Shown here piece after piece: positions 3,839 to 64,000 of a stretch of DNA of 64,000 nucleotides. Location: assembly GCA_016193465.1 (NCBI GenBank), contig JACPSE010000124.1, positions 290 through 64,289 of the forward strand, in the 5' to 3' direction. Position numbers and translations under genes: made by a program. The stretch comes from Deltaproteobacteria bacterium. Lineage in GTDB: Bacteria; Desulfobacterota; Binatia; UBA9968. Within the stretch, counting starts at the first letter, position 1. The number at the start of each line of letters is the position of its first letter. The notes under the pieces are model-generated. The model was not told the origin of the DNA and did not search any database. It saw nothing but the letters and a program-made list of their open reading frames with translations.

Positions 3839-3842
3839 CCGG

Positions 3843-23162: not shown

Positions 23163-23166
23163 ACTT

Positions 23167-42915: not shown

Positions 42916-43713
42916 ATGAATCGCGATAGCGCAATAGGCGTTTTTGACTCCGGCATTGGCGGGCTGACAGTTCTGCAAAGGATCATGGAGGCGCTGCCGA
43001 GGGAGAACACGGTCTATCTTGGGGACACCGCCCGCTCTCCCTACGGGACCAAGTCGGTGGAGACGGTGCTGCGCTACTCGTTCGAGAATACCGACTTCCT
43101 GTTGGAGAAGGGTGTTAAGCTGGTCGTGGTGGCGTGCAACACTTCGACGGCGATAGCCCTGGAGTCATTGAAGGAAAACGTTTCAGTCCCTGTTATTGGT
43201 GTGATTGAGCCCGGGGTCAGAGGGGCGCTGGAAAAGACGCGAAATGGGAAGATCGGCGTCATCGGAACAGAGGCCACGATCCAGAGCGGGGCTTATTCTC
43301 GAGCCCTCAAGGAAAAAGATTCCGGAGTCGAGGTTTACAGCCGCGCCTGCCCTCTCTTTGTTCCCCTGGTGGAAGAGGGCTGGCTCGATAACGCGGTAGT
43401 GAAGATGACCGTGGAATCGTACCTCGGCAGTCTCAAGCAAAGCGGCATCGATACGCTCATCCTGGGCTGCACCCACTATCCGCTGCTTAAGAAGACGATC
43501 CAGAAATTTTTGGGTCGCGGCGTGCGGCTCGTGGACTCGGCGGAGGAGACCGCCAAGCAAGTGCAAACAACCTTGAAGAAAAGGTCTCTCGCGCGTGAGC
43601 GAGGGAAAGGGGCACCGAGCTTCTTTGTCACCGACGCGCCGGATCGCTTCATCAAGGTGGGGCAGCGCTTTTTAGGCGAGAAGGTGGAGTCCGCGGTCCG
43701 GATCGAGCGGTGA
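42916..43713 (+). CDS. murI: Glutamate racemase
   Basis: IGVFDSGIGGLTV, VVACNTS, LGCTHYP motifs with the two catalytic Cys. Confidence 0.85.
   Translation: MNRDSAIGVFDSGIGGLTVLQRIMEALPRENTVYLGDTARSPYGTKSVETVLRYSFENTDFLLEKGVKLVVVACNTSTAIALESLKENVSVPVIGVIEPGVRGALEKTRNGKIGVIGTEATIQSGAYSRALKEKDSGVEVYSRACPLFVPLVEEGWLDNAVVKMTVESYLGSLKQSGIDTLILGCTHYPLLKKTIQKFLGRGVRLVDSAEETAKQVQTTLKKRSLARERGKGAPSFFVTDAPDRFIKVGQRFLGEKVESAVRIER
43611..43656 (+). repeat. Direct repeat copy 1 (inside murI 3' end), matched by 44141..44186
   Basis: ggcaccgagcttctttgtcaccgacgcgccggatcgcttcat vs ggcagcgagcttctttgtcaccgacgcgccggaccgcctcat. Confidence 0.7.
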
Positions 43714-47631: not shown

Positions 47632-47777
47632 GAATCTTGACGCCTTGCGGCGCTGGAGTGACGTTAATCGTTAATGGCTATTCGTCGGGGACACTGGGCG
47701 CAAGCGCAAACGCCGAGTAACGATTATACGAGTAACGAATCTCTTGTATCAACTGTCCAGAATCGTGTATTTTAATC

Positions 47778-47850
47778 AGAAGGCATTAGGCAATAGGCAG
47801 AAGGCAACAGGAAGATGATTTAACTCTCGCCTCACGCCTTTCGCCTGAAA
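47778..47850. repeat. Heptamer-arm hairpin element (AGGCNNG arm / complementary arm), upstream of secA
   Basis: aggcattaggcaataggcagaaggcaacagg-aagatgatttaactctcg-cctcacgcctttcgcctg. Confidence 0.6.
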
Positions 47851-47855
47851 GCTTT

Positions 47856-50800
47856 ATGCTTAACTTCATCAAAAAAATCATCGGCACGAAAAACGAGCGC
47901 GAGATCCGGCGCATTCAGCCCCTGGTGGAGCAGACTAACGCCCTCGAACCCCAATACGAGAAGCTCACCAACGCGGAGCTAAAGGCCAAGACTGACGAGT
48001 TTAAGAAAAGGATCCAGGAGGCGACCTCAGCCTGCCGCGCCGCGCTCGAAGAGAAACAAGCTCAGGCTGCGGCGGTAACCGGGGAGGAGCGCGAGGAGCT
48101 GAAGGCTGAGGCGGAGGGGATCGAGAAAGAATTGCGTCTGGCCGGAGCTAAGGTTCTCGATAGCCTCATCCCCGAGGCCTTTGCCGCAGTGCGCGAGGCC
48201 TCCAGGCGCACGATAGGGCTGCGCCATTTTGACGCCCAGCTCATTGGCGGCGTGGTCCTGCACGAGGGCAAGATCGCCGAGATGAAGACCGGTGAGGGCA
48301 AGACCCTGGTGGCCACGCTCCCGTTCTATCTGAACGCCCTTACAGGAGATGGAGTTCACCTCATCACGGTCAACGACTATCTCGCGCGCCGGGATGTCCA
48401 ATGGATGGGACCGATTTACCATCTGCTGGGTCTTTCCGTGGCCTCCATGGTGCACGAGGCGAGCTATCTCTTCGACCCTGCTTACATCACCAAGGACTAC
48501 CGTTATCTGAATCTCCGCCCCATCTCGCGCAAAGAGGCTTACCTGGCGGACATCACCTACGGGACCAACAATGAGTTTGGCTTCGATTATCTGCGCGACA
48601 ATATGAAATTTTCCCTGGAGGAATATGTCCAGCGGGATCTGAATTACGCCATCGTGGACGAGGTCGACAATATCCTGATCGACGAGGCCAGGACGCCGCT
48701 GATCATCTCTGGTCCTGCGGAGGAATCGACCGACAAGTACTACATCATCGATCGGATTATCCCCAAGCTGCAGCGCGGCGCGGTCATTCAGGGGGATGCC
48801 TCGCAGGAAAAGCGCGCCGAGATCGAGGCGCAGGGCGACTATACGGTCGATGAAAAGAGCCGGACGGTTACGCTGACCGAGACCGGAGTGGCCAAGGTCG
48901 AGCGCCTGCTCAGTATCCACAACCTCTACGATCCGCGGCAGATCGATACCCTGCACCACGTTAACCAGGCCCTTAAGGCCCACGCGCTTTTTAAACGCGA
49001 TGTCGATTACGTCATTAAGGATGGCGAGGTGATCATCGTCGACGAATTCACCGGCCGCCTCATGCCCGGAAGGCGCTGGTCCGACGGTCTCCATCAGGCG
49101 ATCGAAGCCAGAGAAGGGGTGCACATTCGCGAGGAGAATCAAACCCTGGCGACGATCACGATTCAGAACTATTTCCGCATGTACAAAAAGCTCGCCGGCA
49201 TGACCGGGACAGCCGACACCGAGGCCACGGAGTTCAAGAAGATCTATAAGCTCGACGTGGTGGTTGTCCCAACGCACAGGAAGATGATCCGCAATGATAA
49301 TGCCGATATGGTCTACCGGAGCGAGAAAGAGAAGTTCGACGCGGTAGTGGAGGAGATTGAGGCGTGCGATCAGAAAGGCCAGCCGGTTTTGGTCGGCACG
49401 ACCTCGGTGGCGAAGTCCGAGCGTCTCTCCCGGATGCTCAAGAAAAAAGGGATCAAGCATAACGTGCTGAACGCCGTAAATCACGAGGCGGAGGCGAGCA
49501 TCATCGCCCAGGCCGGTCGGTTTGAGGCCGTGACCATTGCCACTAACATGGCCGGGCGGGGGACCGATATTTTGCTCGGTGGCAATCCGGAATTTTTGGC
49601 CCGTTCGGACATGGAGAACGAATGGATCAGCCGGGCCTCCAAACTGCCGTTGCAAGGGGCCACGCGATACGAAGATGCGCTGCGGGAGCTAAGGGAGAAA
49701 TGCGAAGAGGAGATCCAGCGGGTGGAAGCGCGTTATCGCAAGGAAGCGGAGATCCACGAGCAGAAACGAGGGAATGCGCTGAAAAGGGCCACCGAGATCC
49801 AGCGCCGCTTAAGAGAGCTTTCCCCGTTTCGAGGGCTGCGGCAGGAATACGAAGAGGTCTCAACCAGCGAATTGATCGAGGCGCTGCATGAGCTGCGCGG
49901 CATTCCCGGGGGTTACCTTAAAGTTAAGGAGAAGCTGGAAGAAACCCTTTTTAAGGAAGGGGATGCGGGAGCTATCGAGGCCCGGCGCGCCTTTGAAGAG
50001 GCCCGCGACTCCTTCGGAGAATACCTGGATCGCTGGCAGCGGGGGGATGGTGAAAGACGCGAACTCATGGAGGCCCTGGACGAGAAGAGGCGCAACTACG
50101 AACAGCGTATTAACGATTACGAGGTCGGGGTGACGAACGCGGTTCTGTCGCAGGGGGAACATGCTCCCTTGGTCGCGGAATACGAGGAGACTCGCCGGGC
50201 GTATGAAGAGGCGGAGGCGCGCTGCGAGGAACTCCGGCGTCCTTACGAGGAGGCGGTTCGTGAGGCGCAGAGGAGTTACGAGGCCAAACGGCAGGAGTAT
50301 GTTCGCATAGTCGAGGAGATTCGAGAACAGTTGGAGAAGGCCCCGGAAGCCTACCGGCAGAGATACGAGGAGATCCTGGAAGGGTATAACAAGCTGTGCG
50401 CCGAAGAGAGGGAGAAGGTTATTGCCGCCGGGGGGCTCCACATCGTCGGGACAGAACGGCACGAGAGCCGCAGGATCGACAACCAGTTGCGCGGCCGTTC
50501 CGGCCGCCAGGGCGATCCGGGTTCGTCCCGTTTCTACCTTTCGCTGGAAGATGATCTCATGCGCATCTTTGGCGCGGATCGGATTCAGGGCATTATGAAC
50601 CGCTTGGGCATGGAAGAGGGCGTGCCTATCGAGCATCGCCTGGTGACCCGGGCCATAGAGAACGCCCAGAAAAAGGTCGAGGCCCATAACTTCGATATCC
50701 GCAAACACCTCCTGGAATACGATGACGTTATGAACAAGCAGCGGGAGGTGATCTACCACCAGAGGAGGGAAGTCCTCAAAGGGGAGAACCTGAAAGAGGA

Positions 50801-51452
50801 TGTCCTGGAAATGGCCCAGGGCTTGGGTGAGGATATGGTGGGGCGCTGCGTGGATAAAAATCTCCACCCCTCGGAGTGGGACCTCAGCGGGCTGCGGGAG
50901 GCGCTCTATCACCAATTTAATTTTCGTCTGGATCTGAAGCCAGAGGAACAGGAAGATTTGAGCGTCGAGAAGCTGCAGGAAATTGTTGTGGAGAAGCTAA
51001 GCCAGACCTACGAGAAGAAGGAAGAGCGGTTCAGCTCTCCTATGCTCCGGCAGTTGGAGAAGATTATCATGCTCCAGACGATCGACAGCTTGTGGAAGGA
51101 CCACCTCCTTAATATGGACCATCTGAAAGAGGGGGTTGGGTTGCGTGGTTATGGCCAGAAGAACCCTTTGCAGGAGTATCAGAAGGAAGGGTTCGAGATG
51201 TTTGAGGAGATGGTCCGCCAGATTCAAGTGGATGTCGTGCAGAAGCTCTTTACCATTGAAATGGCGCGGGAAGGCGCTTTAGAAGAGATGGAAGTTCAGC
51301 GTCGCCCGCAGAGAATTGTTTTGAGCCATGGCGGCGACGGGGAAGAGCCGGCGCGGGTGACCCCGATCAAGCGGCAGGGCAGTAAGGTTGGCAGGAACCA
51401 GCCTTGTCCCTGCGGCAGCGGCAAGAAGTACAAACGTTGTTGCGGCAAATGA
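47856..51452 (+). CDS. secA: Preprotein translocase ATPase SecA with about 270-aa expanded variable (VAR) subdomain
   Basis: Walker [42 protein letters not shown]-terminal zinc site [14 protein letters not shown]; 1198 aa with E/R/A-rich insertion about 49600..50430. Confidence 0.95.
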
Positions 51453-51490
51453 GAACGTGGCTCGTGATCGTGGTTCGTGCTCGTCGTGGG
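51453..51490. repeat. CGTG/CACGA-rich repeat, left flank of four-helix-bundle gene
   Basis: gaacgtggctcgtgatcgtggttcgtgctcgtcgtggg. Confidence 0.5.
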
Positions 51491-51532
51491 TAAGAATACT
51501 TGGCAGATCGCCCCAAAGAGGTCGCGGAATCA

Positions 51533-51889
51533 ATGAAATCCGTTGAGGACCTAGACGTCTTCAAGCTTGCCCATGAACTCACTCTAAGAATCTACAAAGT
51601 AACGGCTGATTTTCCGCGAGAAGAGAGCTTTGGCATTGTCTCGCAGATGAGACGAGCGGTAAGCTCTGTAGGAGCGAATTTAGTTGAGGGATCCATGAGG
51701 CTTAATAGCCGGGAGTTCAGGCAGTTTGTAGGTATTGCTAGGGGCTCAGCGGCTGAAGTCGGCTACCAACTACTTTTGGCCAGGGATTTGGGCTATATCT
51801 CAAATCAGGTCTACGAAGAAACTCGGTCAGACTACGACAGAGTAGGTCAGATGCTTACTTGCCTGGGTCAATCACTGGATCGTGAGTAG
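51533..51889 (+). CDS. Four-helix-bundle protein (23S rRNA intervening-sequence protein family, TIGR02436-like)
   Basis: DLDVFKLAHELTLRIYKVTADFPREE..GIVSQMRRAVSSVGANLVEG...ARGSAAEV.YQLLLARDLGYI. Confidence 0.7.
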   Translation: MKSVEDLDVFKLAHELTLRIYKVTADFPREESFGIVSQMRRAVSSVGANLVEGSMRLNSREFRQFVGIARGSAAEVGYQLLLARDLGYISNQVYEETRSDYDRVGQMLTCLGQSLDRE

Positions 51890-51950
51890 CGAGGACGAAC
51901 CACGAGCACTATCAATGAAACGAACACGAGCAACGAGCACGAACACGATT
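51890..51950. repeat. CGTG/CACGA-rich repeat, right flank (inverted relative to left flank)
   Basis: cgaggacgaaccacgagcactatcaatgaaacgaacacgagcaacgagcacgaacacga. Confidence 0.5.
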
Positions 51951-53126
51951 AAAGGTCCCGGTTTTAAATTCGCCGGCGTCGCCTGCGGCATCAAGAAAAG
52001 CAAGAAAAAGGATCTCGCCTTGATCTTTTGCGAACGGCCCGCCACGGCCGCCGCGCTTTTTACCACCAACCGGGTGAAAGCCGCCCCGGTGCTTGTCGGG
52101 ATGAGACGAATGCGCCGCGGGATCGCTCAGGCGGTAGTCGTGAACAGCGGCAACGCCAACGCCTGCACCGGCGCCAGGGGGCTTCGGGACGCCGAAGCCA
52201 CCTGCCGCCAGGTCGGTGCCCGGCTCGGGATAGACCCCGGGCTGGTGATTCCTTGCTCCACGGGTATTATCGGAGTCCCGATGCCCATGGAAAAAGTGAG
52301 GAGCGGGATCGAGAGGGCTGCTGCCAGCCTTTCGGCCGATTCTTTTTCACATGCCGCCGAGGCGATCCTTACGACCGATCGTTTTATCAAGGTTGCCTCC
52401 GCTACCTGTTCGCTGAAGGGCAAAAAGGTCGTGCTTGCAGGAATGGTGAAAGGGGCGGGAATGATTGCCCCTAACATGGCCACCATGCTGGCCTATATTC
52501 TCACCAATGCGGCAGTGGAGCATCGTAGTCTCCGTAGTATCCTGCGCCGCTCGGCGGAAGAGAGCTTCAACCGTGTCACGGTGGATGGGGATGTGAGCAC
52601 GAACGACACGGTTCTCTTTCTGGCCAACGGCCTTGCCGGGAACTCCCCGGTAAGGCGGGCAAGCAGGGAGGAAAGAGTTCTCGTCAGAGCGGCTCAGGAG
52701 CTCATGAAGGAGCTTGCCATCAAGCTGGTCGAAGACGGGGAGGGAGCGACCAAGGTCGTTGAGGTTTTTGTCGAGGGCGCCCGCACTGTGGCCGAGGCCA
52801 AAAAGGTTGCCTTCTCTGTTGGCAATTCCAAGCTTGTCAAAACCGCGTTTTTCGGATCCGACCCCAATTTTGGCCGCATCATGGCGGCTATCGGTTATGC
52901 GGGGGTGCCAATCCGCCCTGAACGGATCGACATTGCCTTTGACAACGTTACGGTAGTGAAGAGCGGTGTAGGGATGGCGTCCAGAGAAAAAAAGGCGGCC
53001 CGTGTCTTAAGGCACCCCTCGTTGCGGCTGAAAATAGACCTGCATCAGGGAAGGCGGTCGGCCGCTGTGTGGACCTCGGATTTAAGCTACGAATACGTGC
53101 GTATTAACTCGGCTTATAGAACGTGA
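51915..53126 (+). CDS. argJ: Bifunctional glutamate N-acetyltransferase / amino-acid acetyltransferase ArgJ
   Basis: ATMLAYILTNAAV self-cleavage site region and ArgJ body; start chosen after repeat-encoded leader of ORF. Confidence 0.85.
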   Translation: MKRTRATSTNTIKGPGFKFAGVACGIKKSKKKDLALIFCERPATAAALFTTNRVKAAPVLVGMRRMRRGIAQAVVVNSGNANACTGARGLRDAEATCRQVGARLGIDPGLVIPCSTGIIGVPMPMEKVRSGIERAAASLSADSFSHAAEAILTTDRFIKVASATCSLKGKKVVLAGMVKGAGMIAPNMATMLAYILTNAAVEHRSLRSILRRSAEESFNRVTVDGDVSTNDTVLFLANGLAGNSPVRRASREERVLVRAAQELMKELAIKLVEDGEGATKVVEVFVEGARTVAEAKKVAFSVGNSKLVKTAFFGSDPNFGRIMAAIGYAGVPIRPERIDIAFDNVTVVKSGVGMASREKKAARVLRHPSLRLKIDLHQGRRSAAVWTSDLSYEYVRINSAYRT

Positions 53127-53172
53127 ACAAGGCTTCAGCCATCAGCTTAAAGCACAATTGACGGCTGAGAGC

Positions 53173-54618
53173 TTAGTTTCCTAGTTTTTTCCTCAGTATC
53201 TCATTGACCATTTGGGGGTTGGCCTTGCCCCGGGTGGCCTTCATGACTTGCCCCACCAGAAAGCCGAAAACCTTCTCTTTTCCGGCGCGATAGTCTGATA
53301 CCTGCTCCGGCTGGCCGGCAAGCACCTCGTCGATGGCCCTTTCGATGTTGCCCGCGTCCGTGACCTGCTCTAAGCCTTTCTCGCGGACTATCCTGTCCGG
53401 GGACTCTCGTCGTTCCAGCATCTCTAGAAATAGAGCTTTGGCCATCTTGCCGCTGATCTTTCCTTCATCGATCATGCGGACCATCTCGGCTAAATGATCG
53501 GGGGCAATCGGCCAGGCGGTGATGCGGAGGTTCTCATCCAGTTTCTTCTCCCTGATGATCCGAAAGAGATCGCCCATGACCCAATTGCTGATCGCCTTGG
53601 GATTGGGGTGGCTCTTCACTGCCGCTTCGAAGTAGTCCGCCACATCCCTGCGACTTGTGAGAAGCTCGGCATCGTAGAGGGGGAGAGCGTATTCGGACAT
53701 AAAGCGTTCCTTTTGCTGCTCTGGCAGTTCCGGAAGGCCGGCCCTGATCGCTTCGATCCATTTTTCCTCGATGATAAGGGGGAGCAGATCTGGCTCCGGG
53801 AAATAGCGGTAGTCGTGGGCAAACTCCTTGGAGCGCATGGAGCGGGTGATTTCACGCTCCGCGTCCCAAAGCCTGGTTTCCTGGATAAGTTTGCCTCCTT
53901 CCGAGAGGGTCTCGATCTGCCTCCGGATCTCATATTCCAGGGCCTTTTCTACCGCCTTGAAGGAGTTCATGTTCTTGATCTCAACCTTGGTGCCGAACTC
54001 GCTGGAGCCGCGCGGACGCACGGAAATATTGGCATCGCAGCGAAAGGAGCCTTCCTCCATGTTGCCATCGCAGACCTCTAGATATTGCAAAATGGCTCTC
54101 AGATTCTTGAGGTAGCGGCCGGCCTCTTCGGCGCTGCGGATATCCGGCTCGCTGACGATCTCCATGAGCGGGACGCCGGCTCGATTCAGATCTACCAGAC
54201 TGTAGTCCCCACGGACGTCGTGGATGTTTTTTCCCGCGTCTTCCTCCATGTGGATGCGGGTCAGGCGGATTTTCTTTTTGCCCCCATTGGACTCGATCTC
54301 GATGTGACCGTTGCGGCATAAGGGCAGCTCGTACTGGCTGATCTGATAGCCCTTGGGAAGGTCGGGGTAGAAGTAGTTTTTTCTGGCCCAACGGCTGAAG
54401 CGCGCGATCTCGCAGTGAGTGGCCAGCCCTGTGCGGACGGCGAATTCAACGACTTTCTTGTTGAGCACCGGCAAGACTCCAGGGAATCCCATGCATACCG
54501 GACAGCTATTTTGGTTGGGATGTGCCCCAAAACGTGTCGAGCAGCCGCAGAAAATCTTGGACTCGGTTAAAAGCTGGGCGTGGACCTCAAGGCCGATGAC
54601 AGGCTCGTAGTTGCTCAT
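53173..54618 (-). CDS. gatB: Asp/Glu-tRNA amidotransferase subunit B
   Basis: [16 protein letters not shown]..., C-terminal YqeY-like domain. Confidence 0.95.
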
Positions 54619-55016
54619 TTCTTACCGCCTATCTTTTCCCGAATCTCAGTAACGATGGCTTTCGCGTCTTTCAGTGCATTTTGAGCATCCGCCTTCGTAG
54701 GCTCCCCCGCGGGCAGCAGGCCTGGAAGGGCATCGGCATATCGTGTCGGAATGTAGAAACGATCCAGGTTCCGGCACAGTGTCCGCCACTTCCGCAGCTC
54801 AGTGCGGATTCCAGCGTCGTAGAGAAGCATCTGCTCCAGGGAATGGCTCTTGGGATGAGTTCCTAGTCGGGCATCCAAGAGTCCCTTTAGTGCTTTTTCA
54901 ACGGCCTGCTGGGCGTGAAAGCAGGTTTGCCGGAAAATGCTCCGAGACAAGGCGTATTCAGCCATCTCGATGTCTTCATTCGCAAGTTCCAACCAGCGCT
55001 CAGCCTCAGGCTTCAT
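54615..55016 (-). CDS. HEPN domain protein (putative toxin/partner of adjacent nucleotidyltransferase)
   Basis: HEPN helices with R..(4-6)..H-type motif ([12 protein letters not shown]) ; 133 aa; 4-nt overlap with upstream NTase gene. Confidence 0.65.
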
Positions 55017-56203
55017 ACCGGAAAAAGCACTTGCCCTTTCTTGAGAATCTCACCCCTCACGAAGAAGTGCCCCTCCTGCTCCGCCCGATTAAACTCCTCA
55101 GGGGTATAGACAATGGCATTCAGGCCAACCCGTGGTTGGAGCAGGTCCATGACTTCTCGGATGCGATCCAAGAAGCTCGCCGGAGTCGATTTCACAATAG
55201 CCAGATCAATATCGCTCCACTGGTGAACCGCATCTGGGGAATGGTCGGCAAGGGAGCCGAAGAGGATAATACGCTCAGGACGATACTGTTCGACCAACTT
55301 GCTCTTGATTCGTTCCAGCTCTCGTAGGAGCGTTTCTCTCCTGTCAAAGAGCTTCCGGAAGATTTTTTTGAGCTCTGGCCTTAGGGGGTGAGCCGCCCGC
55401 GGGTTTGTAAACAGACGACTATGGACTCTCACATCGTGAAAGTGTGGGACTAGCTTCATCCATACGAGAGCGCTTATGCGGGATGTTCCTCCCCTATCGT
55501 CAGGGAGACAAAAGAGCCCATCGGGGACTCGCTCGTTTCTAATTTCACGTCTTAGAGCATTAGCCTTGTAAACCTCATCCCCCCAGAGGACCGACTCCAT
55601 ATCTTCTAAGCGGCCTCCGCGTGCTCCGACAACCAGGACCGTCGGCTTCCCGGACGGGAGTTGGTCAAGTTCTTTCGTAATTCGTTGACGCAACTCCTGA
55701 GAGGCCGGAATTCCTCGGATCTCTGAATTATCTCTAGCGGTGGTCGGATCAAAGGTTGCCTCGACGGTGACGCGACCATAGACACGCGTATCATCAGCAA
55801 CGGTATCCGACCCGTAAACAGGCGGGAACCTATCCTCCCTGGTCGTGACCTCGAGGAATACTTCTTGCCCCTTTAACTGGCACTTCAAGTCACATTTGGC
55901 GGCGCCAACTTTCGGCGCCAGTTCCAACTTGTCGGCAACGGGAGCTAGCATGGCTGCAACTCTTATTTCGTACATCGCCGCGAGGAACTGGCCGGCGTTT
56001 TGCAACAACGTTCGATAGGCGGTTGCGATTTTAACGCATGGCAAGTGACGTGTCAGAAGCTCAAGGTCTTGTTCCACCTGCCACAGCGGAAGGATGCCGA
56101 GTTGCTCAAACTCGCGCTTCCGCGCACTAAGGTTGCGACTCCCAAGCAGTTCGGCTAGACGAGGGAACTTATTCGAGATTAGAGAAGTCAACGTATTATC
56201 CAT
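55013..56203 (-). CDS. Minimal nucleotidyltransferase (MNT) domain protein with about 290-aa N-terminal domain of unknown function
   Basis: C-terminal [10 protein letters not shown]...DIDLAIV (GS...D.D) pol-beta-type NTase motif; start MDNTL overlaps gatA stop by 8 nt; upstream ORF extension overlapping gatA rejected. Confidence 0.6.
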
Positions 56204-57662
56204 GGTCGAGCAGCGGTTTCTTTTTGTGCCATTCCGTGGCCTGCTCATAGGCGAAGGCCAGCCTGAGGATCGTGGCCTCGTCGAAATGCCTGCCGATGAT
56301 CTGCATGCCGATGGGTAGCCCCTCAGCGTCAAAACCGCACGGCACCGAGATTGCGGGGAGCCCCGCGAGGTTCGCCGAGATGGTAAAGATATCGGAGAGA
56401 TACATCTGCAACGGATCCTGGGTCTTTTCTCCGATCTTAAATGCGGTGGTGGGCGCCGTGGGGGTAATGATGGCGTCACATTTTCGGAACGCCGCTTCGA
56501 AATCCTTCTTGACGAGAGTCCTCACCCGCTGGGCCTTCAGGTAATAGGCGTCGTAGTAGCCGGCTGAGAGGGCATAGGTCCCGAGCATGATCCGCCGCTT
56601 CACTTCCGCTCCGAATCCTTGCTCCCTGCTCCTCGTGTAGGTCTCAGTGAGATCCCTGGCGAGGGCGCGATAGCCGTACTTCATGCCGTCGTAACGCGCC
56701 AGGTTGGAGCTGGCCTCGGCCGTTGCGATGATATAATAGACCGCGACCGCGTACTCCGTGTGCGGCAGAGAGACCTTCTCGATTCTGATGCCGTTTTTTT
56801 CCAGCACGCGAATCGCCTCTTTAACGGCCTGTTCCACTTCCGGCTGCATTCCGGGGATAAAATACTCTTTGGGGATCCCGACTCTTAGCCCTTTCGCATC
56901 GCCGTTCAGAAAGCTGGCGTAAGCGGGGACAGGCGCGTTGACCGAAGTGGAGTCCGACGGATCATAGCCGGCGACCGCCTCCAGCATCAGGGCGCAGTCA
57001 GTGACATTTTTTGTCATCGGGCCGACCTGATCCAGGGAAGAGGCGAAGGCGATGATGCCGTAGCGGCTGACTCGACCATAAGTAGGTTTTAGCCCCACGA
57101 TCCCGCAGCAGGCCGCAGGCTGGCGGATGGAGCCTCCCGTATCGGTCCCCAGCGCAGCGATGCATTGATCCGCAGCCACTGCCGCTGCTGAGCCGCCGGA
57201 GGAGCCGCCGGGGACCCGATCCAGTTTCCAGGGGTTATGGGTTATGGCGATAGCGGAGTTTTCCGTCGAGGAGCCCATGGCAAACTCGTCCATGTTTGTT
57301 TTCCCCACGGCGACGGCTCCGGCTTCTTTCAATTTTCTTACCGCAGTGCCGTCGTAAGGAGGGACAAAGTTTCCCAATATCTTGGAGGCGCAGGTCGTCA
57401 ACACCCCTTGGGTGAGAAAGATATCCTTCAGGGCAAGTGGAATGCCCAGCAACGGGGAAGATTCTCCGCCTTTTCCGAGTCTTTCGTCGGCCTGCTTCGC
57501 CTCTGCAATGGCCTTGTCCCGGCAAAGCGTGATATAGGAGTGTAATTTATCCTCGGTGGCCGAGATCCTGCGGAACACCGACTCGGTGACCTCTACCGAC
57601 GAGACCTCGCGCTTTTTGAGTTTCCCGTGCAGCTCGTGAAGGGTTAAGGTATGGAGGCTCAT
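56196..57662 (-). CDS. gatA: Glutamyl-tRNA(Gln) amidotransferase subunit A
   Basis: Amidase signature [13 protein letters not shown], Ser-cisSer-Lys triad region. Confidence 0.95.
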
Positions 57663-57946
57663 TCAATGATCTTTGGAACTTTAAAGAAATCCCTTTCCCG
57701 TGCCGGCGCGTTAGCAAGCAGGGTATCGGGCGAGGGTTGGTTGACAACGCGATCTTCGCGGAAGGCGTTGACGATGTCCGCCACGTGGGCGAGTGGCTCC
57801 ACATTTGCCGTATCCAGTTGGTTCAGCTTCTCGATGTATTGAAGGATCCTGTCCAGTTGGCCGGTTAGAATTTCCTCCTCTTGCGGAGAGAACTGCAGGC
57901 GGGCCAACAGGGCGACTCGCTGGACTTCGTCACGGGTAATTTTCAT
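57659..57946 (-). CDS. gatC: Asp/Glu-tRNA amidotransferase subunit C
   Basis: [25 protein letters not shown], 95 aa, overlaps gatA. Confidence 0.9.
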
Positions 57947-57960
57947 ATGATTTTTCTAAC

Positions 57961-58066
57961 ATAGGCGAATAGGCAATAGCAATCAGCGGACTTAGGCGTG
58001 AGGCGGTAGGCGTCAGGCAACAGTTGAGCCTTTTCTATCGCCTATTGCCTGATGCCTGTTGCCTTC
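57961..58066. repeat. Heptamer-arm hairpin element between gatC and rnhB
   Basis: ataggcgaataggcaatagc...gcgtgaggcggtaggcgtcaggcaacag-ttgagcc-ttttctatcgcctattgcctgatgcctgttgcc. Confidence 0.6.
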
Positions 58067-58118
58067 TTTTTTAGCTTTTTATTTGCAGTTCTATTCCCTT
58101 TTGGTTAAAAAGGAGTGC

Positions 58119-58961
58119 ATGAAGGAAAGTTGGAATAGCGCCGAACTGGAGGAAGAAGCCTATTCTCGCGGCTTTAAGTGTGTCGCCGGGCTGGACGAAG
58201 TAGGCAGGGGACCGTGGGCGGGTCCGGTGGTGGCCGCCGCTGTGGTTCTCCCTCCGGGTGTGAGCCATCCAGAGATCAAAGACTCGAAACTCCTTACCGC
58301 TAAGAAACGGGAGGAACTAACGATTTGGATTAGAGAGCGGGCCGTGGCGTGGGGATTAGGGGTTGTTGAGTCCGAAGAGATCGACCGGATGAATATCCTG
58401 AAGGCGAGCCTTCTGGCGATGTCCCTCGCTTTTAAGCGCCTCAATCCGCTCCCGGATTACCTGCTGATTGACGGGCCGCATAAAATTCCGTTGGAGTTCC
58501 TAAGGGCAGAAGAAGCCAGGCAACAGGCAGAAGACAGGCGAGAGGCAACAGGCAACAGGCTAGAGCCGGGAGGCGACAGGAGGGAGGAAGATGATTTAGC
58601 TCTCGTCTCAAGCCTCACGCCTTCCGCCTCATGCCTTTCCCCTCACGCCTCGCGCCTCACGCCTCATGCCTTGCCCTTCCAGAAGGCGATCAAGAAGGGC
58701 GACCGGTTGTCTATTTCTATTGGCGCGGCCTCTATCGTGGCCAAGGTGGCGCGGGATGAGATAATGAAAAAATATGACAGCCTGTATCCTGAATACGGAT
58801 TTAGGCAGCATAAGGGCTACGGATCCCCTGCGCACCTGGCAGCGCTCCGTCGCTATGGCCCGGCGCCGATTCACCGCAGGAGCTTCAGGCCGGTGCGGGA
58901 ATGTCTCAGCTTACCAGCCTCCCAGCTTCCTAGCCTCCTAGCTTGGAGGCGAGAAGGCTAG
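58119..58961 (+). CDS. rnhB: Ribonuclease HII carrying an in-frame about 56-aa low-complexity insertion derived from a heptamer hairpin element
   Basis: GLDEVGRGPWAGPVV, LLIDG, KGD..S.SIGAASIVAKV, GYGS motifs; insert between LIDG and KGD (58514..58676); RBS aaaggag before ATG 58119. Confidence 0.85.
   Translation: MKESWNSAELEEEAYSRGFKCVAGLDEVGRGPWAGPVVAAAVVLPPGVSHPEIKDSKLLTAKKREELTIWIRERAVAWGLGVVESEEIDRMNILKASLLAMSLAFKRLNPLPDYLLIDGPHKIPLEFLRAEEARQQAEDRREATGNRLEPGGDRREEDDLALVSSLTPSASCLSPHASRLTPHALPFQKAIKKGDRLSISIGAASIVAKVARDEIMKKYDSLYPEYGFRQHKGYGSPAHLAALRRYGPAPIHRRSFRPVRECLSLPASQLPSLLAWRREG
58514..58676. repeat. Heptamer-arm hairpin element inserted in-frame within rnhB
   Basis: aggcaacaggcagaagacaggcgagaggcaacaggcaacaggc...ggaggaagatgatttagctctcg...cctcacgccttccgcctcatgcctttcccctcacgcctcgcgcctcacgcctcatgcc; centre matches 47778 element. 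Confidence 0.7.
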
Positions 58962-58974
58962 AAAGCCTGATCGC

Positions 58975-59340
58975 ATGGAAGGTCAAAAGCAGATTCTGGG
59001 CAAAGAAGGGGAGCGGATTGCCGAGACGTTTCTCAGGAAGAAAGGCTACAGGCTCGTGGAACGGAACTACCGCTGTCCGGTCGGGGAGTTGGACCTTGTT
59101 TTGTTGGATCGCCGGGTTTTGGTTTTCGTTGAGGTGAAGACCCGCACGGATGATCGCTTCGGCGGGCCTCTTGAGGCGGTCCATCCGCGCAAGCAACATA
59201 AGATGGTCAAGGCAGCGCTTTTTTTCCTCAGCCAGCATCGGCTGCACCACAGGGAAGCGAGGTTCGACGTCGTGGGTATCTCCTGGAAAGACCGAGAACC
59301 GCTGGTGGAACATGTGCAAAATGCCTTTGAGATTTCATAA
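58975..59340 (+). CDS. yraN: YraN family (UPF0102) endonuclease-like protein
   Basis: GE..AE.FL...GY....RN.R...GE.DLV......LVFVEVK.R pattern; follows rnhB as commonly seen. Confidence 0.8.
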   Translation: MEGQKQILGKEGERIAETFLRKKGYRLVERNYRCPVGELDLVLLDRRVLVFVEVKTRTDDRFGGPLEAVHPRKQHKMVKAALFFLSQHRLHHREARFDVVGISWKDREPLVEHVQNAFEIS

Positions 59341-59425
59341 AGAAGGCGTGAGGCGTGAGGCATGAGGCGCGAGGCGTGAGTAAAAACTTCTTCTGGTTGC
59401 CTGTTGCCTTTCGCCTCAAGCCTAA
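59341..59425. repeat. Heptamer-arm hairpin element between yraN and serS
   Basis: aggcgtgaggcgtgaggcatgaggcgcgaggcgtgag-taaaaacttcttctg-gttgcctgttgcctttcgcctcaagcct. Confidence 0.6.
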
Positions 59426-59436
59426 AGTGTTTTCTC

Positions 59437-60708
59437 ATGCTGGATATTAAGCTTCTTCGAGACAATTTGGATCTGGTTAAAGAGCGGATCGGCGCCAGGG
59501 GGACGAAGATCGACTGGGAAGAGTTCGGCGCCGTGGACCGGGAGCGCCGGGAGACGCTGGCGAAGTGGGAGAGACTGAAGGAGAAAAAAAATCAGCTTTC
59601 CGGCGAGATCGGCAGGCTAAAAAAATCGGGTCAGGATGCCGCTTCGCTGATGCGGGATGTGGAGCAGCTTTCCCAGGCGATCCGCGACGGTGAGGGACCT
59701 TTAGCGGAGATCGAAGGGCGATTCCAGAAATGGATGCTTTGGATTCCGAACCTACCGCACCCCAGCGTGCCGTTGGGATCGGGCCCCGAAGACAACAAGG
59801 AGGTGAGACAATGGGGCGAGCTTCCCCGTTTCGATTTTTCTCCGAAAAACCATTGGGAGATAGGGGAAGAGCTGGGAATTCTGGATTTTACCAGGGCGGC
59901 AAAAATTGCGGCCTCTCGGTTCGCGATTTACTATAGACAGGGGGCGTTGCTGGAGCGGGCGCTGATCAATTTCATGCTCGATCTGCACACGCGCGAGCGT
60001 GGTTACCGGGAGACGGTGCCGCCGTTTCTGGTGAATCGAGAGACCATGACGGGCACGGGGCAGCTACCAAAATTTGAAGAAGAGCTTTTCCGCACCGCGG
60101 AACCGGAGCTTTTCCTCGTGCCAACGGCTGAGGTGCCGTTGACGAACATCCACCGGGATGAGGTTTTGAGCCGGGAAGATATCCCTATCTGCTACGTCGC
60201 CTATACTCCTTGCTTTCGCCGCGAGGCGGGCTCCTACGGACAGGACGTGCGCGGGCTGATACGCCTGCACCAGTTCAACAAGGTGGAGCTGGTGAAATTG
60301 ACCGGGCCGCAGAATTCTTACGAGGAGCTGGAGAAAATGGTGCGGGATGCCGAGGAGGTCCTTCAAAGGCTTAGGCTTCCTTATCGCGTCGTGGAGCTTT
60401 GCGCTGGCGATTTGGGCTTTTCCTCGGCGAAAACCTACGATTTGGAGGTGTGGCTGCCAGGGCAGGGGGCTTACCGGGAGATCAGCTCCTGCTCGAACTG
60501 TGAGGATTTTCAGGCGCGCCGGGCTCAAATCCGCTATCGCCCGGAAAAAAAAGGAAAACCCGTTTTTGTCCACACGCTCAACGGCTCCGGCCTGGCTGTG
60601 GGAAGGACAGTGGTTGCGGTCTTGGAGAATTACCAGCAGAAGGATGGGACCGTGATTGTGCCGGAGGCGCTACGTCCGTATATGGGAGGTCTGGAGCGGA
60701 TCAGCTAA
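59437..60708 (+). CDS. serS: Seryl-tRNA synthetase
   Basis: N-terminal coiled coil, class II motifs ([23 protein letters not shown]). Confidence 0.9.
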
Positions 60709-60852
60709 AAAAACAGTTTTGAGTGGTGAGTTTTTAGTTCTTAGTTGACAGAAGTTTCCTTTCAACTCAAAACTAATAACCTAAAATTAAAAACTTAAAT
60801 GTTGAGCTGGAGCCTATTTACTATTGACTATTTACTGTTTACTGTAATTGCA

Positions 60853-60941
60853 GGAGGGGTGGCCGAGCGGTTTAAGGCACCGGTCTTGAAAACCGGCGTC
60901 CACTGCGTGGACCGCGAGTTCGAATCTCGCCCCCTCCGCCA
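60853..60941 (+). tRNA. tRNA-Ser (anticodon TGA)
   Basis: GGAGGGGTGGCCGAGCGGTTTAAGGCACCGGTCTTGAAAACCGG + long variable arm + GAGTTCGAATCTCGCCCCCTCCGCCA; near-identical architecture to E. coli tRNA-Ser(UGA). Confidence 0.9.
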
Positions 60942-60955
60942 CTAGTTTGGATAAA

Positions 60956-61015
60956 ACGTGTCCCGTGTTCGTGATTCGTGTTCGTACGAGCACGAGAAAC
61001 GAGCACGATCACGGC
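60956..61015. repeat. CGTG/CACGA-rich inverted repeat between the two tRNA-Ser genes
   Basis: cgtgttcgtgattcgtgttcgtacgagcacgagaaacgagcacgatcacgg; same family as flanks of four-helix-bundle gene. Confidence 0.5.
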
Positions 61016-61029
61016 TTTTACTTCACCAC

Positions 61030-61122
61030 GGAGAGATGGCCGAGCGGTCGAAGGCGCACGCCTGCTAAGCGTGTGTACCCCTTAAAAGGGTACCGAGGGT
61101 TCGAATCCCTCTCTCTCCGCCA
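61030..61122 (+). tRNA. tRNA-Ser (anticodon GCT)
   Basis: GGAGAGATGGCCGAGCGGTCGAAGGCGCACGCCTGCTAAGCGTGTG + long variable arm + GGGTTCGAATCCCTCTCTCTCCGCCA. Confidence 0.9.
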
Positions 61123-61158
61123 TCAATTCAGTAAATTTTGCTATTCACTATTTGCCGG

Positions 61159-61584
61159 CTAGCGCCGCCCGGTCACGGAGGCGTGGATAGCTCTCCACCT
61201 CTTCAGTTGTTCGGGGGAAAGGAGCCTGTTAACTTTTCTTTCTGTGGCAATTTCGCCGACCCTCAAATTTGTCTGGATGTCAGCTTTCTCTCTTAACCTT
61301 TTTTCAATCTGCGCCGGATCAGCTTCCTTCTCGGTAAGATCCTCCAATTCGTCGTCGATAAGGACAATCTTTGCGCTGGCTAGGCGGCGCTGTCTAAATT
61401 GTTGCTTCCAAATGGCACTGATCTCGCTTACCTGATTGTCGGTCAATTTCAGATCATCCCTTACATCTATGATTAGCGGGACAGGGTCCGCATAGGCCAC
61501 AGTAGAAAAGCTGATAGCTAAGAGCTGACAGCTAAGAGCAGAGAGGGCGAGAGAGAGCAGAAAAACCTTTAAACGGCTTTGCAT
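61159..61584 (-). CDS. Periplasmic LTXXQ-motif (Spy/CpxP-like) protein, copy 1; signal peptide encoded by heptamer repeat
   Basis: Signal peptide; LTDNQVSEI and LSPEQLKRW motifs. Confidence 0.65.
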   Translation of the reverse strand: MQSRLKVFLLSLALSALSCQLLAISFSTVAYADPVPLIIDVRDDLKLTDNQVSEISAIWKQQFRQRRLASAKIVLIDDELEDLTEKEADPAQIEKRLREKADIQTNLRVGEIATERKVNRLLSPEQLKRWRAIHASVTGRR

Positions 61585-61589
61585 CGTAA

Positions 61590-61700
61590 TAGCTGAAAGC
61601 TAAGGGCTGAAGGCTAATAGCTAAGAGCGAATAGCTGAGGGCTAAGAGCTTAGACAAACGGCTCTCGGCTCTAGACCCTAAGCTCTAGAGCTGTTTTTCT
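61590..61700. repeat. Heptamer tandem repeats (AGCTNAG/GGCTNAR type) between the two LTXXQ genes
   Basis: agctgaaagctaagggctgaaggctaatagctaagagcgaatagctgagggctaagagcttagac; 7-nt periodicity. Confidence 0.6.
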
Positions 61701-62158
61701 TATCTGGCGGCGGCCTGAATCCCCCTCCATCTCTTGAGCTGCTCGGGGGAAAGAGTTCGATTGATCTTTCTAGTTGCCTCAATGTCGGCGATTCTCATAA
61801 CTATACGAATGTCAGCCGCTTCTCTCAGCTTCTTCCTAATGAGGTCGAGATCGCCCTCTTTGTTGAGAAGATCCTCCAGCTCAGAATCAATGATAACAAG
61901 CCTCGCATTGCTCAACCGGGCGTCTTTGTTAAGGTTTTGCAGGATGGTCCTGATGTCCTGCTCCTGCTTGTCTGTCATATTGAGATCGCCCTTATAGTCG
62001 AATATGGTCCTTCCCCGAGCCGGCTCGGCTTGCGTGGGCTGAGCCGTAGGGGAGGGCGCTGCCTTTGCTGCGGGTGCAACCTGAGCCGGCTGAGCCGTGC
62101 CCACCATGACAATACTGACAACAACCATCGTCGCAATCTTCAAGAAGCCTTTGACCAT
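61700..62158 (-). CDS. Periplasmic LTXXQ-motif (Spy/CpxP-like) protein, copy 2
   Basis: Signal peptide, Ala/Pro/Gln linker, MTDKQEQDI and LSPEQLKRW motifs; paralog of copy 1. Confidence 0.65.
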   Translation of the reverse strand: MVKGFLKIATMVVVSIVMVGTAQPAQVAPAAKAAPSPTAQPTQAEPARGRTIFDYKGDLNMTDKQEQDIRTILQNLNKDARLSNARLVIIDSELEDLLNKEGDLDLIRKKLREAADIRIVMRIADIEATRKINRTLSPEQLKRWRGIQAAAR

Positions 62159-62210: not shown

Positions 62211-64000
62211 TCATCCGCCGATTCCCAGCCTGCGCTTCAGTTCCTCCTCAAGCTCGATCTCTTTTGGCTCCTCGGTAACTATGGCCTCTTCAGCCAGGCT
62301 GATGAGCCTCCCGGTAGTGGTTGCAGGGCCTCCGGTTTCGGAGACGGTGCTACCAAATACACCCAATATGAGCAAGCCTTTAGTACCGCCGATGGACCCT
62401 TGGAAGTCAAGGATTCCTGTGACGCCTCCATCTGTTGGTGCGGGCGAGCCCTCAAGGAACGCATCGCCACTGGCCGAAACAGTGAATCCTCCTCCTGAGA
62501 CATTGTACGCGAAGGGATTGGCGTCCGATCCAATGGAGCCGCCATTTGCCTTGAGTTCAGAGTTAGTCCCTGCGGTCAGGTTGGGATCGAAATTGCCCGC
62601 CATTATGCCTCCAGCCGAGGTGAGGAAAATCCCACCGTTGGTCGCCTCTACCTGGTTCACGGTCATGTCGCCGGATATCGTCTGAAGCACAACGTCGCCG
62701 TTTGTGGTCGTTGCGGTCAGCGTGGATTCAGAGATCTCAAGGGGTTCTGACTGGGTCCCAATCCCATTGCTTGCTGTGAGATCCAGCGTACTACCTGTGA
62801 TATCCACGCCGGCATCCGGGTTCTCCAAAATGGCGCCAGCGGCCGTTATGGTTACCGTGTCATTCTCCGCTTTGACGTCGTCAACGATGATGTCACCGGA
62901 CCCAGTGGTTTCAAGAGTCAGATCTCCGTCGCCAGGGGCCGCCGTGCCTGCCGTCACCGTCTGTGCTTTTAGGTTCGCACCGGCATTCTGTAAGGTAATA
63001 TCCCCGGAAGTCGTAGTGACATTGACGAAGGTTACGGCCCCGCCTCCACTCTGCTCAAAGGTGATGGTTCCTGTGCCTGTGGTGAGGCTATTGACCGACA
63101 CGGCCGTACCTAGCGCATTGTCAATGTCAATGTTGCCGTTGGTGGTGTCAGCGGTAATTGTGCTAGCCGCCAACTCCAGGGCTGTGGTGTTTCCGATACC
63201 TGTGGTGGCATCGAGGTCTGCCGTTGAAGCGGTGATCAAGCCAGCGCCGTTGATCGAACCGGAGGTAACATTCAGAGTAACAGTGCCTGCCCCCGCATTA
63301 ACCGCCTGGCTGACCGTCAGATTGCCTCCAGTCTGGACCGTAACGTTCCCACCATTGGAGCTAATACCGCTCAAGGAGCCCACCGTGCCAATCGTCATAT
63401 CATCGGTATCCCGGATCTTAATATCCCCGGCTGTATCGGCCTTGGCTGCCACGGTGTTGACGTCATTGCCAGCTTGGTTGACGGTAATTGGGCTACCGGA
63501 CTCCAAGGAGAGCTTATCAGCGGTGATGGCGCCGCCAGTCTGATTGATGGCGCCGTCTGAGACGAGGGTGACCGTGCCCGCACCGGCGCTGATGTTGACA
63601 CCGATGGTAAGGGCACTAGTAGAATCCAGCGTGACGTTGCCGTCAGCCGTGGTGATATTCCCGTTAGCGTTGATGGTGTCCGCCGTCACGTCCAGAGCGT
63701 CTAGGGCCATGGTAGTGCCGACGGCGCCCCCTAGTGTCACCGTGCCGCCACCCGCTGTAATGGTAAGCCCCTCAGTGCCTGCGGTAGTGGCATCAATGGT
63801 GGAGGTAAAGGTTAGGCTGTTATCTGCTGCGCCATCGGTGTCGATGGTGACGTTGGCTCCTAAGACCACCGCCCCTGTAAAGGTCGCCGTGGCCCCACCG
63901 GCCCCGTCATCCACTGTCACGCCCGTGCTGTTCAGATTGATCGTGGCTGCCGTCACGTCCAGATCGGCTAGCGCCTGTGTGCCGCCCACGATCCCGCCAA
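62211..64000 (-). CDS. Large Thr/Gly/Ala-rich beta-helical repeat protein (filamentous haemagglutinin/adhesin-like), N-terminus outside window
   Basis: Long tracts of T/G/A/V/N-rich repeats (TVTLGGAVGTTMALDALDVTADTINANGNITT...), typical of secreted beta-helical adhesins; ORF runs to window edge. Confidence 0.65.
   Translation of the reverse strand, partial: GGIVGGTQALADLDVTAATINLNSTGVTVDDGAGGATATFTGAVVLGANVTIDTDGAADNSLTFTSTIDATTAGTEGLTITAGGGTVTLGGAVGTTMALDALDVTADTINANGNITTADGNVTLDSTSALTIGVNISAGAGTVTLVSDGAINQTGGAITADKLSLESGSPITVNQAGNDVNTVAAKADTAGDIKIRDTDDMTIGTVGSLSGISSNGGNVTVQTGGNLTVSQAVNAGAGTVTLNVTSGSINGAGLITASTADLDATTGIGNTTALELAASTITADTTNGNIDIDNALGTAVSVNSLTTGTGTITFEQSGGGAVTFVNVTTTSGDITLQNAGANLKAQTVTAGTAAPGDGDLTLETTGSGDIIVDDVKAENDTVTITAAGAILENPDAGVDITGSTLDLTASNGIGTQSEPLEISESTLTATTTNGDVVLQTISGDMTVNQVEATNGGIFLTSAGGIMAGNFDPNLTAGTNSELKANGGSIGSDANPFAYNVSGGGFTVSASGDAFLEGSPAPTDGGVTGILDFQGSIGGTKGLLILGVFGSTVSETGGPATTTGRLISLAEEAIVTEEPKEIELEEELKRRLGIGG

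Follow-up and report, generated by a model that had tools for sequence, protein, structure and literature searches.

Tandem-heptamer hairpins in a deltaproteobacterial contig and their probable kinship with gene-carrying, IVS-like palindromic elements

A 64,000-nt stretch of DNA from a Deltaproteobacteria bacterium (GCA_016193465.1, contig JACPSE010000124.1, positions 290 to 64,289, forward strand; hereafter the window) contains about 20 sites with tandem arrays of 7- or 8-nt units, where about 0.1 would be expected by chance. Most of these arrays are paired with their own reverse complement, giving long imperfect hairpins that evolve fast. One pair of arrays, between secA and argJ, brackets a gene of Pfam family PF05635, whose product is the protein of 23S rRNA intervening sequences (IVSs), also named S23p or IVP. 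Because the same kind of arms bracket an IVP gene here and in many bacteria, the hairpins look like gene-less copies of a scarcely studied selfish element that even occurs in frame within genes, and we consider it probable that they are IVP-associated, IVS-like palindromic selfish elements together with their gene-less derivatives. The full form would be a promoter-less cassette in which a PF05635 gene of about 118 codons lies between inverted arrays of 3-9 tandem units of 6-8 nt; the window would then hold one full cassette and, at some 18 other sites, none of which has an open reading frame (ORF) of its own, gene-less hairpins or single arrays of like build. The SerRS of the window is closest to those of Binatia / Thermodesulfobacteriota metagenome-assembled genomes (68-75%). 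A preliminary description of this DNA had reported a dispersed, hairpin-forming family with a tandem-repeat substructure that resembled repetitive extragenic palindromic (REP) sequences or transposable elements of the miniature inverted-repeat kind (MITEs). That description is supported, and the observation is confirmed and broader than first reported; the interpretation given with it stood only in part, the PF05635 gene at 51533-51889 having been overlooked.

A gene-carrying cassette between secA and argJ

The cassette consists of the following parts.

51453-51490: left arm with the CGTG-core units CGTGGCT CGTGAT CGTGGTT CGTGCT CGTCGTGG, pairing with 51893-51935
51533-51889, plus strand: gene for a 118-aa four-helix-bundle protein (23S rRNA IVS protein, S23p, IVP), in the loop between the two arms
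51893-51948: right arm with ACGA/CACG units, reverse complement of the left arm, overlapping the argJ start codon (ATG at 51915)

The gene product matches PF05635 (E = 8e-36) and TIGR02436 (109 bits against a cut-off of 24), and is 100% identical to protein P0001. It is related to the proteins of PDB entries 2GSC and 2RLD, each of which was deposited with five chains (pentameric). PADLOC returned no defence-system match for the IVP. An identity with Avd, the accessory protein of diversity-generating retroelements (DGRs), was considered and rejected, since the NF033474 score was 20.9 bits against a cut-off of 80 and the neighbouring genes are secA and argJ. When the whole 521-nt cassette was folded, the arms at 51453-51490 and 51893-51935 paired with each other, the arm duplex having an energy of -41.8 kcal/mol. 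Like an IVS, the cassette has a PF05635/TIGR02436 ORF inside the element and terminal inverted repeats with a long stem; it differs in position, lying between secA and argJ and not in helix 25 or 45 of 23S rRNA. No rRNA genes were found in the 64-kb window.

The right arm also contributes to the downstream protein. The first ten codons of argJ (51915-51948) are encoded by it and specify an N-terminal extension, MKRTRATSTN. Since the argJ start codon lies in the right arm, it would be buried in the long stem. At the syntenic locus L287 the left arm is nearly identical to 51453-51490 and argJ is arranged as in the window (ATGGCACGAGCACGAG), while at L003 (Ca. Binatia OZ244621), where secA-IVP-argJ is likewise syntenic with the window, ArgJ starts MIIKVPGF and has no extension.

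Upstream of the cassette, SecA (47856-51452) is 1198 aa long, and the SecA_DEAD profile of 290 positions is stretched over residues 6-461, so that there is a large insertion in the motor domain. SecA of L287 is equally long, and a tandem array was not detected anywhere in the window secA.

Tandem-repeat arms accompany the IVP gene in other genomes

A scan of metagenome contigs yielded 80 loci with IVP homologues at 50-82% identity, and both flanks could be quantified for 67 of them. As a null we used 104 control genes taken from the IVP loci themselves; swapping flanks between loci is invalid as a null because the loci share arms. The inverted-flank score exceeded the 95th percentile of the controls at 57 of the 67 loci (Mann-Whitney p = 4e-23), and a chain of at least three upstream core units with its reverse complement downstream was present at 39 of the 67 loci and at none of the 104 control genes. 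The arrays mostly have 3-5 units, with a mode of 3-4 upstream and 4-5 downstream. Inspected by eye, nearly all 80 loci have (CGTGNN)n upstream and (CACGAN)n downstream of the gene, the most distant of them having (CAGTGN)n and (TGACAC)n instead. More distant homologues have arms of other sequence: CTAGGNN at L052, TTCGTNA at L003 (34% identity), TAGGCNN at L281, TAGTCNG at L282 and, in cassettes of a Planctomycete type, GAGGCNT (L189/L283), AGGCTYC (L222) and TTAGGNN (L288). Arms of the AGGC type, which gene-less hairpins of the window also have, therefore do bracket IVP genes elsewhere. On plasmids, inverted arrays were found around the IVP genes of Nostoc edaphicum (GGGAGTA / CTCCCTA), Calothrix brevissima (AGGGTGT), Nostoc ATCC 53789 and Azospirillum lipoferum. 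A scan of viral contigs for AGGC arrays recovered mostly perfect variable-number tandem repeats, but also two IVP cassettes; an alignment-based viral scan gave four loci only. Tandem-repeat arms are, across several phyla, a near-constant companion of the PF05635 gene family. Within the limited literature that we covered, no paper was found that states this general association.

Two simple rules relating arms to protein were tried and rejected. A strict correspondence of unit type with IVP clade holds for the CGTG and CAGTG clades and fails in a Planctomycete clade, and the idea of five units for a pentamer was dropped because the distribution of unit number is broad and not sharply five.

At least 25 different gene contexts were counted upstream of the cassettes and at least 32 downstream, and the closest relatives of the window IVP (77-82% identity) lie in a context other than secA-argJ. 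They are co-oriented with the upstream ORF at 47 of 57 loci and with the downstream ORF at 50 of 60, which fits a promoter-less passenger in operons.

Two IVP loci have notable surroundings. On a Pseudanabaena galeata plasmid (L302; NZ_CP112875, 45868-47012) the IVP gene lies between cas6 and cas4, inside a CRISPR-cas operon, and its long arrays are direct, not inverted, with (CTAAAAG)n upstream and (CCAAAAG)n downstream. In the cultured planctomycete Roseiconus nitratireducens (L298; GCA_008629675, VWOX01000028, 10376-17450) several tandem-repeat hairpins, of unit types GAAGAGT/CTTCAAA, TTAGCNN/GCTAANN, TGAGNCT and TAGGNNT, lie within 7 kb of an IVP gene, making this species a possible experimental model.

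Arrays and hairpins in the window

With dinucleotide shuffles as the null and two scorings, the window has seven (strict score) or nine (window score) segments of period 7 against 0.1 and 0.0 in shuffles, and three of period 8 against 0.1 and 0.0; periods 4-6 and 9-12 showed no enrichment over shuffles. A scan that makes no assumption about the unit, accepting any 4-nt core repeated at least four times at a spacing of 6-8 nt, found 14-15 arrays, compared with 0.1 in shuffles. The resulting density, 0.23 per kb, compares with 0.042 per kb around serS in 80 other species (1.15 Mb in all), where 49 of the loci have no array. At least seven unit types are present: AGGCNNN, AGCTNAG/CAGC, CGTGNN(N), ATCTCAG/ATTTCAA, AAAGGGTT, TTTTGAG and CTATTTA.

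The elements are listed here, with the minimum free energy (MFE) and z-score of the fold where available, except those inside genes, which are given in the next section.

3762-3844: CAGC / GCTGA-type hairpin in the convergent gcvT / M28-peptidase gap; z -3.2
25538-25613: ATTTCAA / ATCTCAG-type hairpin upstream of an M24 peptidase gene; z -4.4
41517-41562: single 8-mer array, AAGGGTTN x5, without a complementary arm; z -0.5
42763-42825: ATCTCAG-type hairpin, its right end overlapping the called start of ORF 42814-43713; z -3.9
47655-47745: weaker hairpin of CGTTAAT / ACGATTA units, adjoining the element at 47778-47850; z -1.1 / -1.8
47778-47850: AGGC-type hairpin upstream of secA, in which the 4-nt cores alone pair; loop GGAAGATGATTTAACTCTCG
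53123-53179: CAGC-type hairpin in the convergent argJ / gatB gap; z -1.9 / -2.5
57963-58064: AGGC-type hairpin in the divergent gatC / rnhB gap; MFE -44.6, z -3.6
59344-59423: AGGCGTG-type hairpin between yraN and serS; MFE -45.0, z -6.4
60715-60795: AT-rich hairpin of TTTTGAG / AACTNAA units after serS; z -1.6 / -3.5
60812-60848: single array of five CTATTTA units, just upstream of tRNA-Ser(TGA), for which no complementary arm was found
60958-61013: CGTG-type gene-less hairpin (E15) between two tRNA-Ser genes; MFE -29.2, z -4.1
61587-61697: AGCTNAG array and, after it, a complementary GCTCTNN arm, with a Spy-like gene on either side; z -1.5

Some of the elements lie between co-directional genes. 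The described arrays were present at all nine sites named earlier (about seven, plus two weaker relatives); that count was too low, since sites were added, Tandem Repeats Finder and an inverted-repeat finder being among the methods that added them, at 25538-25613, 31538-31612 (8-mers), 41517-41562, 42763-42825, 47655-47745, 51453-51490 with 51893-51948, 60715-60795, 60812-60848 and 60958-61013. Folding of the copies gave long interrupted hairpins at most sites, with z from -2 to -6.4. The expectation of a stable hairpin at each copy did not hold everywhere: folds were weaker at 47655-47750, 47772-47852 (plus strand), 60712-60802 (plus strand) and 61585-61700, and 41505-41625 and 61500-61585 consist of single arms. 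An assembly artefact is contradicted by homologous copies in the independent assemblies L300, L299, L285 and L287.

Elements inside coding sequence

Besides the right arm of the cassette from 51915 onward, the following elements lie in or extend into genes.

31538-31612: 8-mer hairpin, AAAGGGTT / AACCCTTN, in the region encoding the N-terminal signal peptide of a TctC-family ORF (30532-31623, minus strand)
58519-58677: AGGC-type hairpin within rnhB, inserted in frame and read as about 47 extra aa between IDGPHKIP and FQKAIKKGD; MFE -78.2, z -4.4
58902-58975: CAGC/CTAGC-type hairpin (8/16-nt period) spanning the rnhB stop codon and filling the gap up to yraN; z -2.2 / -2.9
61509-61539: single AGCTNAG array, whose minus-strand reading gives ORF 61159-61584 the hydrophobic core of its signal peptide

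The placement of copies in short intergenic gaps, as the preliminary description had it, is thus true of many of them and not of these. Nor does a 7-nt period preclude coding: at least four of the arrays are read in frame, and close relatives have other in-frame arrays at the site of the rnhB insertion. The insertion of about 47 aa in RnhB was seen against the orthologues in L001 and L002, and the window ORF reads through it, with no stops in the frame used and two and one in the other frames. An AlphaFold (AF2) model of the 280-aa protein has a confident RNase HII core and pLDDT values below 50 at residues 145-148 and 150-182. The last 19 or so residues of RnhB are encoded by the 58902-58975 element, and a similar C-terminal tail is found in P0248. 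Copies inside genes stay in frame.

It may be that the arrays at ORFs 30532-31623 and 61159-61584 were recruited to serve as export signals. Beside the Spy-like protein with the array-encoded region (61159-61584, minus strand) lies a Spy-like paralogue, at 61700-62158, whose signal peptide is ordinary.

Homologous copies and turnover between strains

The gene-less copies are, at the level of their sequence, homologous beyond a likeness in style. E15 contains a 41-nt exact match to a hairpin that lies just upstream of an IVP gene in L285. An exact match of 43 nt, to L300, is present in the rnhB element's left arm, though the flanking genes are only about 78% identical. Within the window, a 20-nt loop is common to 47810-47829 and 58586-58605 (two matches, 0.02 expected). 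The secA-upstream gap of L287, orthologous to the gap at 47778-47850, also has AGGC arrays, and the unit type at 47655-47745 resembles the arms of the L003 IVP gene.

Near-identical strains could be compared through the contigs L299, L300 and L301, which come from different samples and are 97-99.5% identical in their flanks. In this lineage the RnhB homologues are 218 to 303 aa long and have, at one site, an AGGC-type insert, a GTTCAA-type insert or none: L299 has a short remnant, L300 an AGGC hairpin and L301 a GTTCAA hairpin, each of which keeps the reading frame. The L300 insert comes with differences in about 30 nt of the codons beside it, so that it looks like a recombined patch and not a clean transposition. 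In the gatC-rnhB gap the outer arm of the 57963-58064 element (CATAGGCGAAYAGGCAATAGCAATCAGC) is conserved in all three contigs and in the window, and encloses four different inner hairpins. An orthologue of the hairpin at 59344-59423, with four units instead of five, is present in L299 and L300. Copies therefore do differ in presence or absence among related strains, as had been proposed for comparison: the number of units is variable, and between near-identical strains there is gain, loss or replacement of entire hairpins.

At the same rnhB hot spot, L003 (9030-9110) has an insertion of about 26 aa whose DNA, CCCAAATCTCAAAGGCAAATCGCAGGTCTCC, resembles a decayed ATCTCAN-type array. The AGGC-type loops at 47810-47824 and 58586-58600 contain AGGAAG-ATG-ATT-TAA/TAG, that is, a start, one codon and a stop behind a Shine-Dalgarno-like motif. 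Either a start-stop mini-ORF or the scar of a deleted cassette gene may be present here, the latter reading, as an IVP remnant, being suggestive only.

Alternative explanations

The hairpins are distributed much as REPs are, and the window encodes a possible agent: the minus-strand ORF 23167-24093 matches REP_Tyr_transpos (NCBIfam NF047646; 85.4 bits against a cut-off of 80) and Pfam Y1_Tnp. The hairpins might then be REPs, or REP doublets forming hairpins (REPINs), carried by this REP-associated tyrosine transposase (RAYT), a Y1 transposase, and the comparable paired octamer arrays of Geobacter metallireducens are targets of IS110/IS481 insertion, as REPs are. We judge this unlikely and keep it as a minor rival only, because the repeats beside the RAYT gene are unrelated 18-mers and 12-mers, with CCATTGGGGTC three times and CCCCTATCTCCT twice, which have no further copy in the window. 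None of the heptamer families flanks the gene. The arms are tandem arrays of 25-70 nt that have no GTAG/CGTC tag at the element ends, whereas REPs are given as palindromes of 20-40 nt with such a tag at one end (PMC3733652), and at least seven unit families are unlike a cognate REPIN population. The association that was measured is with PF05635 genes, not with a RAYT. Membership in the MITE class was also rejected, as the gene-carrying partner encodes PF05635 and not the transposase of an autonomous insertion sequence (IS). If the arrays were instead plain long simple sequence repeats (SSRs), made in place by replication slippage and template switching, they would have no mobility and their relation to the IVP would reflect a shared mutational bias only. 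The variation of unit number between strains and the largely locus-specific unit sequences agree with such an origin, as does the abundance of heptamers, cited in PMC4679880 as the most common class of long SSR in most surveyed prokaryotic genomes. It is nevertheless improbable, given that loops and arm stretches of 41-43 nt are common to unlinked loci and to genomes whose flanking genes have diverged by about 22%, that the tie to one gene family is strong and specific (none of the 104 control genes), and that whole hairpins are replaced by an unrelated unit type in strains 97-99.5% identical in their flanks.

Two further explanations assign the arrays a function. Host-selected cis-acting RNA structures, each evolved in place as a terminator, attenuator, mRNA stabiliser or processing signal, would agree with the stability of the folds (z down to -6.4), with the recurrence of hairpins in the same intergenic gaps of the relatives L003, L287 and L299-L301, and with a hairpin at 59344-59423 that is more conserved than its flanking genes. 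Against this, the elements have no U-tracts in the direction of transcription, they lie in a divergent promoter gap, in convergent gaps and in coding sequence, at 47778-47850 the 4-nt cores alone pair, and unit types are swapped between near-identical strains. The intrinsic-terminator pattern (a G+C-rich stem plus a U-tract) was matched at one element, 61666-61693, on the plus strand amid minus-strand genes, and the 23 matches in the whole window are no enrichment over a shuffle mean of 17.3, so that the terminator or attenuator role suggested earlier is not borne out. The same is true of the suggestion of small RNA genes: an Rfam search of the window, at gathering thresholds and then at E <= 1, gave only two tRNAs and antisense noise, and the arm duplexes show no G-U strand asymmetry, being equally stable in sense and antisense (33 versus 32 loci). 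Selection of each hairpin as a cis-acting RNA is in our view quite improbable. The conserved 4-nt cores at a fixed spacing of 6-8 nt, with variable positions often unpaired, also look like iterated binding sites for a protein, either a regulator of the integration host factor (IHF)/HU type, as Aklujkar et al. 2009 hypothesized for their arrays (PMC2700814), or a multimeric RNA binder with one unit per subunit; an array has 3-5 units, and the IVP forms a homopentamer (2GSC and 2RLD with five chains each; PMC4990558). This explanation seems to us very doubtful, for at least seven unrelated cores occur in one 64-kb window, cores differ at the same site between near-identical strains, arrays occur inside genes, and unit number does not peak sharply at five.

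Several observations weigh against the view that we favour, of selfish, IVP-associated elements with gene-less derivatives. No target-site duplication is visible when E15 is compared with L285 or at the rnhB site, where filled and empty alleles also differ in a flank of about 30 nt, and no transposase was identified for the spread of the hairpins. The hairpin at 59344-59423 is 88.5% identical, compared with 75-82% for the flanking genes, which could mean function and not selfishness. One of the six plasmid IVP cases has direct arrays (Pseudanabaena) and another has no arrays, and unit type is not strictly tied to IVP clade, with three types in one Planctomycete clade at 70-75% identity. In the 64 kb covered of this organism, no AGGC-, AGCT-, ATCT- or AAGGGTT-type arms were found around an IVP gene; with only that much of it, the IVP link for these families rests on other genomes. 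Cleavage of the window stems by RNase III would follow by analogy, and with sense and antisense duplexes equally stable nothing shows selection on RNA.

Under the favoured explanation, arrays would lengthen and shorten by slippage, and hairpins and cassettes would spread or be exchanged when similar arrays recombine or undergo gene conversion, or by recombining into the loops of hairpins already present. Once transcribed, the long imperfect stems may be cut by RNase III, as IVSs and Correia elements are. The elements would mostly be neutral passengers, with side effects on the processing of operon mRNA, on access to start codons, and on protein termini or loops.

To our knowledge, PF05635/TIGR02436 is a very large family with solved structures and no function known outside DGRs. 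It is interesting to speculate, although we hold it rather unlikely, that the pentameric IVP, a relative of the DGR protein Avd, is the trans-acting partner of an unrecognised class of mobile element. Its targets would be the repeated units in its own arms and in the gene-less hairpins, recognised either as RNA or as single-stranded DNA in folded form, and it would help them to be copied or inserted, for instance by bringing in a host polymerase, reverse transcriptase or nuclease. If so, this would be a gene and hairpin-population system resembling REPIN-RAYT and built on a non-enzymatic protein, and it would be common to 23S rRNA IVSs, cyanobacterial heptamer repeats and the paired sites of Geobacter.

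Relationship to known systems

Cyanobacterial short tandemly repeated repetitive (STRR) heptamers were reportedly described by Mazel et al. 1990, and according to Vioque 1997 STRRs are said to extend a helix of RNase P RNA. The window arrays resemble them in being tandem heptamers with family-specific units, mostly intergenic, and able to extend RNA helices. On Nostoc and Calothrix plasmids such heptamer arrays, in inverted orientation, bracket S23p genes. The phylum and the unit sequences (AGGCNNN, AGCTNAG, CGTGNN) differ, however, and the window arrays do not belong to the STRR consensus types of heterocystous cyanobacteria; moreover STRRs are defined as direct arrays, and neither a paired-arm hairpin nor a gene association is part of that definition.

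The 23S rRNA IVS of Coxiella burnetii contains an S23p ORF and a 28-bp terminal stem that RNase III cuts in vitro, with 2-3 tandem GACAGAT heptamers, in strain-variable number, before the ORF (PMC4990558). The S23p-carrying IVSs of C. burnetii and Leptospira, which are transcribed by read-through from host promoters and regarded as selfish, are like the window cassette in having a PF05635 gene in the loop of a long terminal stem (PMC4990558). The window cassette is unlike them in lying between protein genes, in having multi-unit arrays in both arms, and in having many dispersed gene-less copies, some of them in coding sequence.

In G. metallireducens, Aklujkar et al. 2009 described sets of 3-5 tandem units of 7-9 nt, paired on opposite strands, which they guessed to be IHF/HU sites and which their supplementary table gives as insertion targets of IS110/IS481 (PMC2700814). 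As in the window, these sites are paired on opposite strands at variable spacing in dozens of intergenic places, and were drawn as hairpins; their consensus sequences (GTTGCTYN, TCTCCGTS, MTYCTGA) are different, and no link to PF05635 was reported (PMC2700814). The TAACTGA repeats of MacGregor 2015 are direct repeats (PMC4679880). Rickettsia palindromic elements are selfish palindromes found in frame in housekeeping genes, and the terminal-inverted-repeat stems of Neisseria Correia elements are cut by RNase III in mRNAs (PMC10969869). Neither has any sequence relation to the window elements; their arms are not tandem arrays of short units, and no four-helix-bundle gene is known for them. REPIN-RAYT systems are alike in that a protein gene is bracketed by inverted copies of an element which is also dispersed, without the gene, in intergenic gaps (PMC3116915). 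They differ in the bracketed gene, which in the window encodes a small four-helix-bundle protein without a known catalytic motif and not a Y1 transposase.

The origin of rRNA IVSs, cyanobacterial STRRs and Geobacter paired sites is a decades-old question, and one frame appears to unite them: a small gene with inverted tandem-repeat arms, accompanied by dispersed gene-less hairpins. Such elements remodel housekeeping proteins in frame, as in the rnhB loop, the ArgJ N-terminus and the signal peptides, which bears on protein evolution, and their turnover between near-identical strains is relevant to strain typing and to breaks in metagenome assemblies.

Other features of the window

The RAYT (23167-24093, minus strand) is 308 aa long and also has a weak DnaA_C-like helix-turn-helix. 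In its flanks (23110-23163 and 24109-24136), AAGTAAGCCATTGGGGTC occurs three times on one side and CCCCTATCTCCT 2.3 times on the other, GGGGTCA / TGACCCC forming a short inverted motif.

Sub-threshold Rfam matches to Plastid-psbl-rps4 at 60888-60938 and 61065-61119 (minus strand; 54 and 30 bits against a gathering threshold of 68) are antisense to the tRNA-Ser genes and are most likely an artefact of a tRNA-complementary model. At the right end, a long low-complexity, T/G/A/N-rich repetitive ORF (62211-63998, minus strand), adhesin- or haemagglutinin-like, runs past the end of the window.

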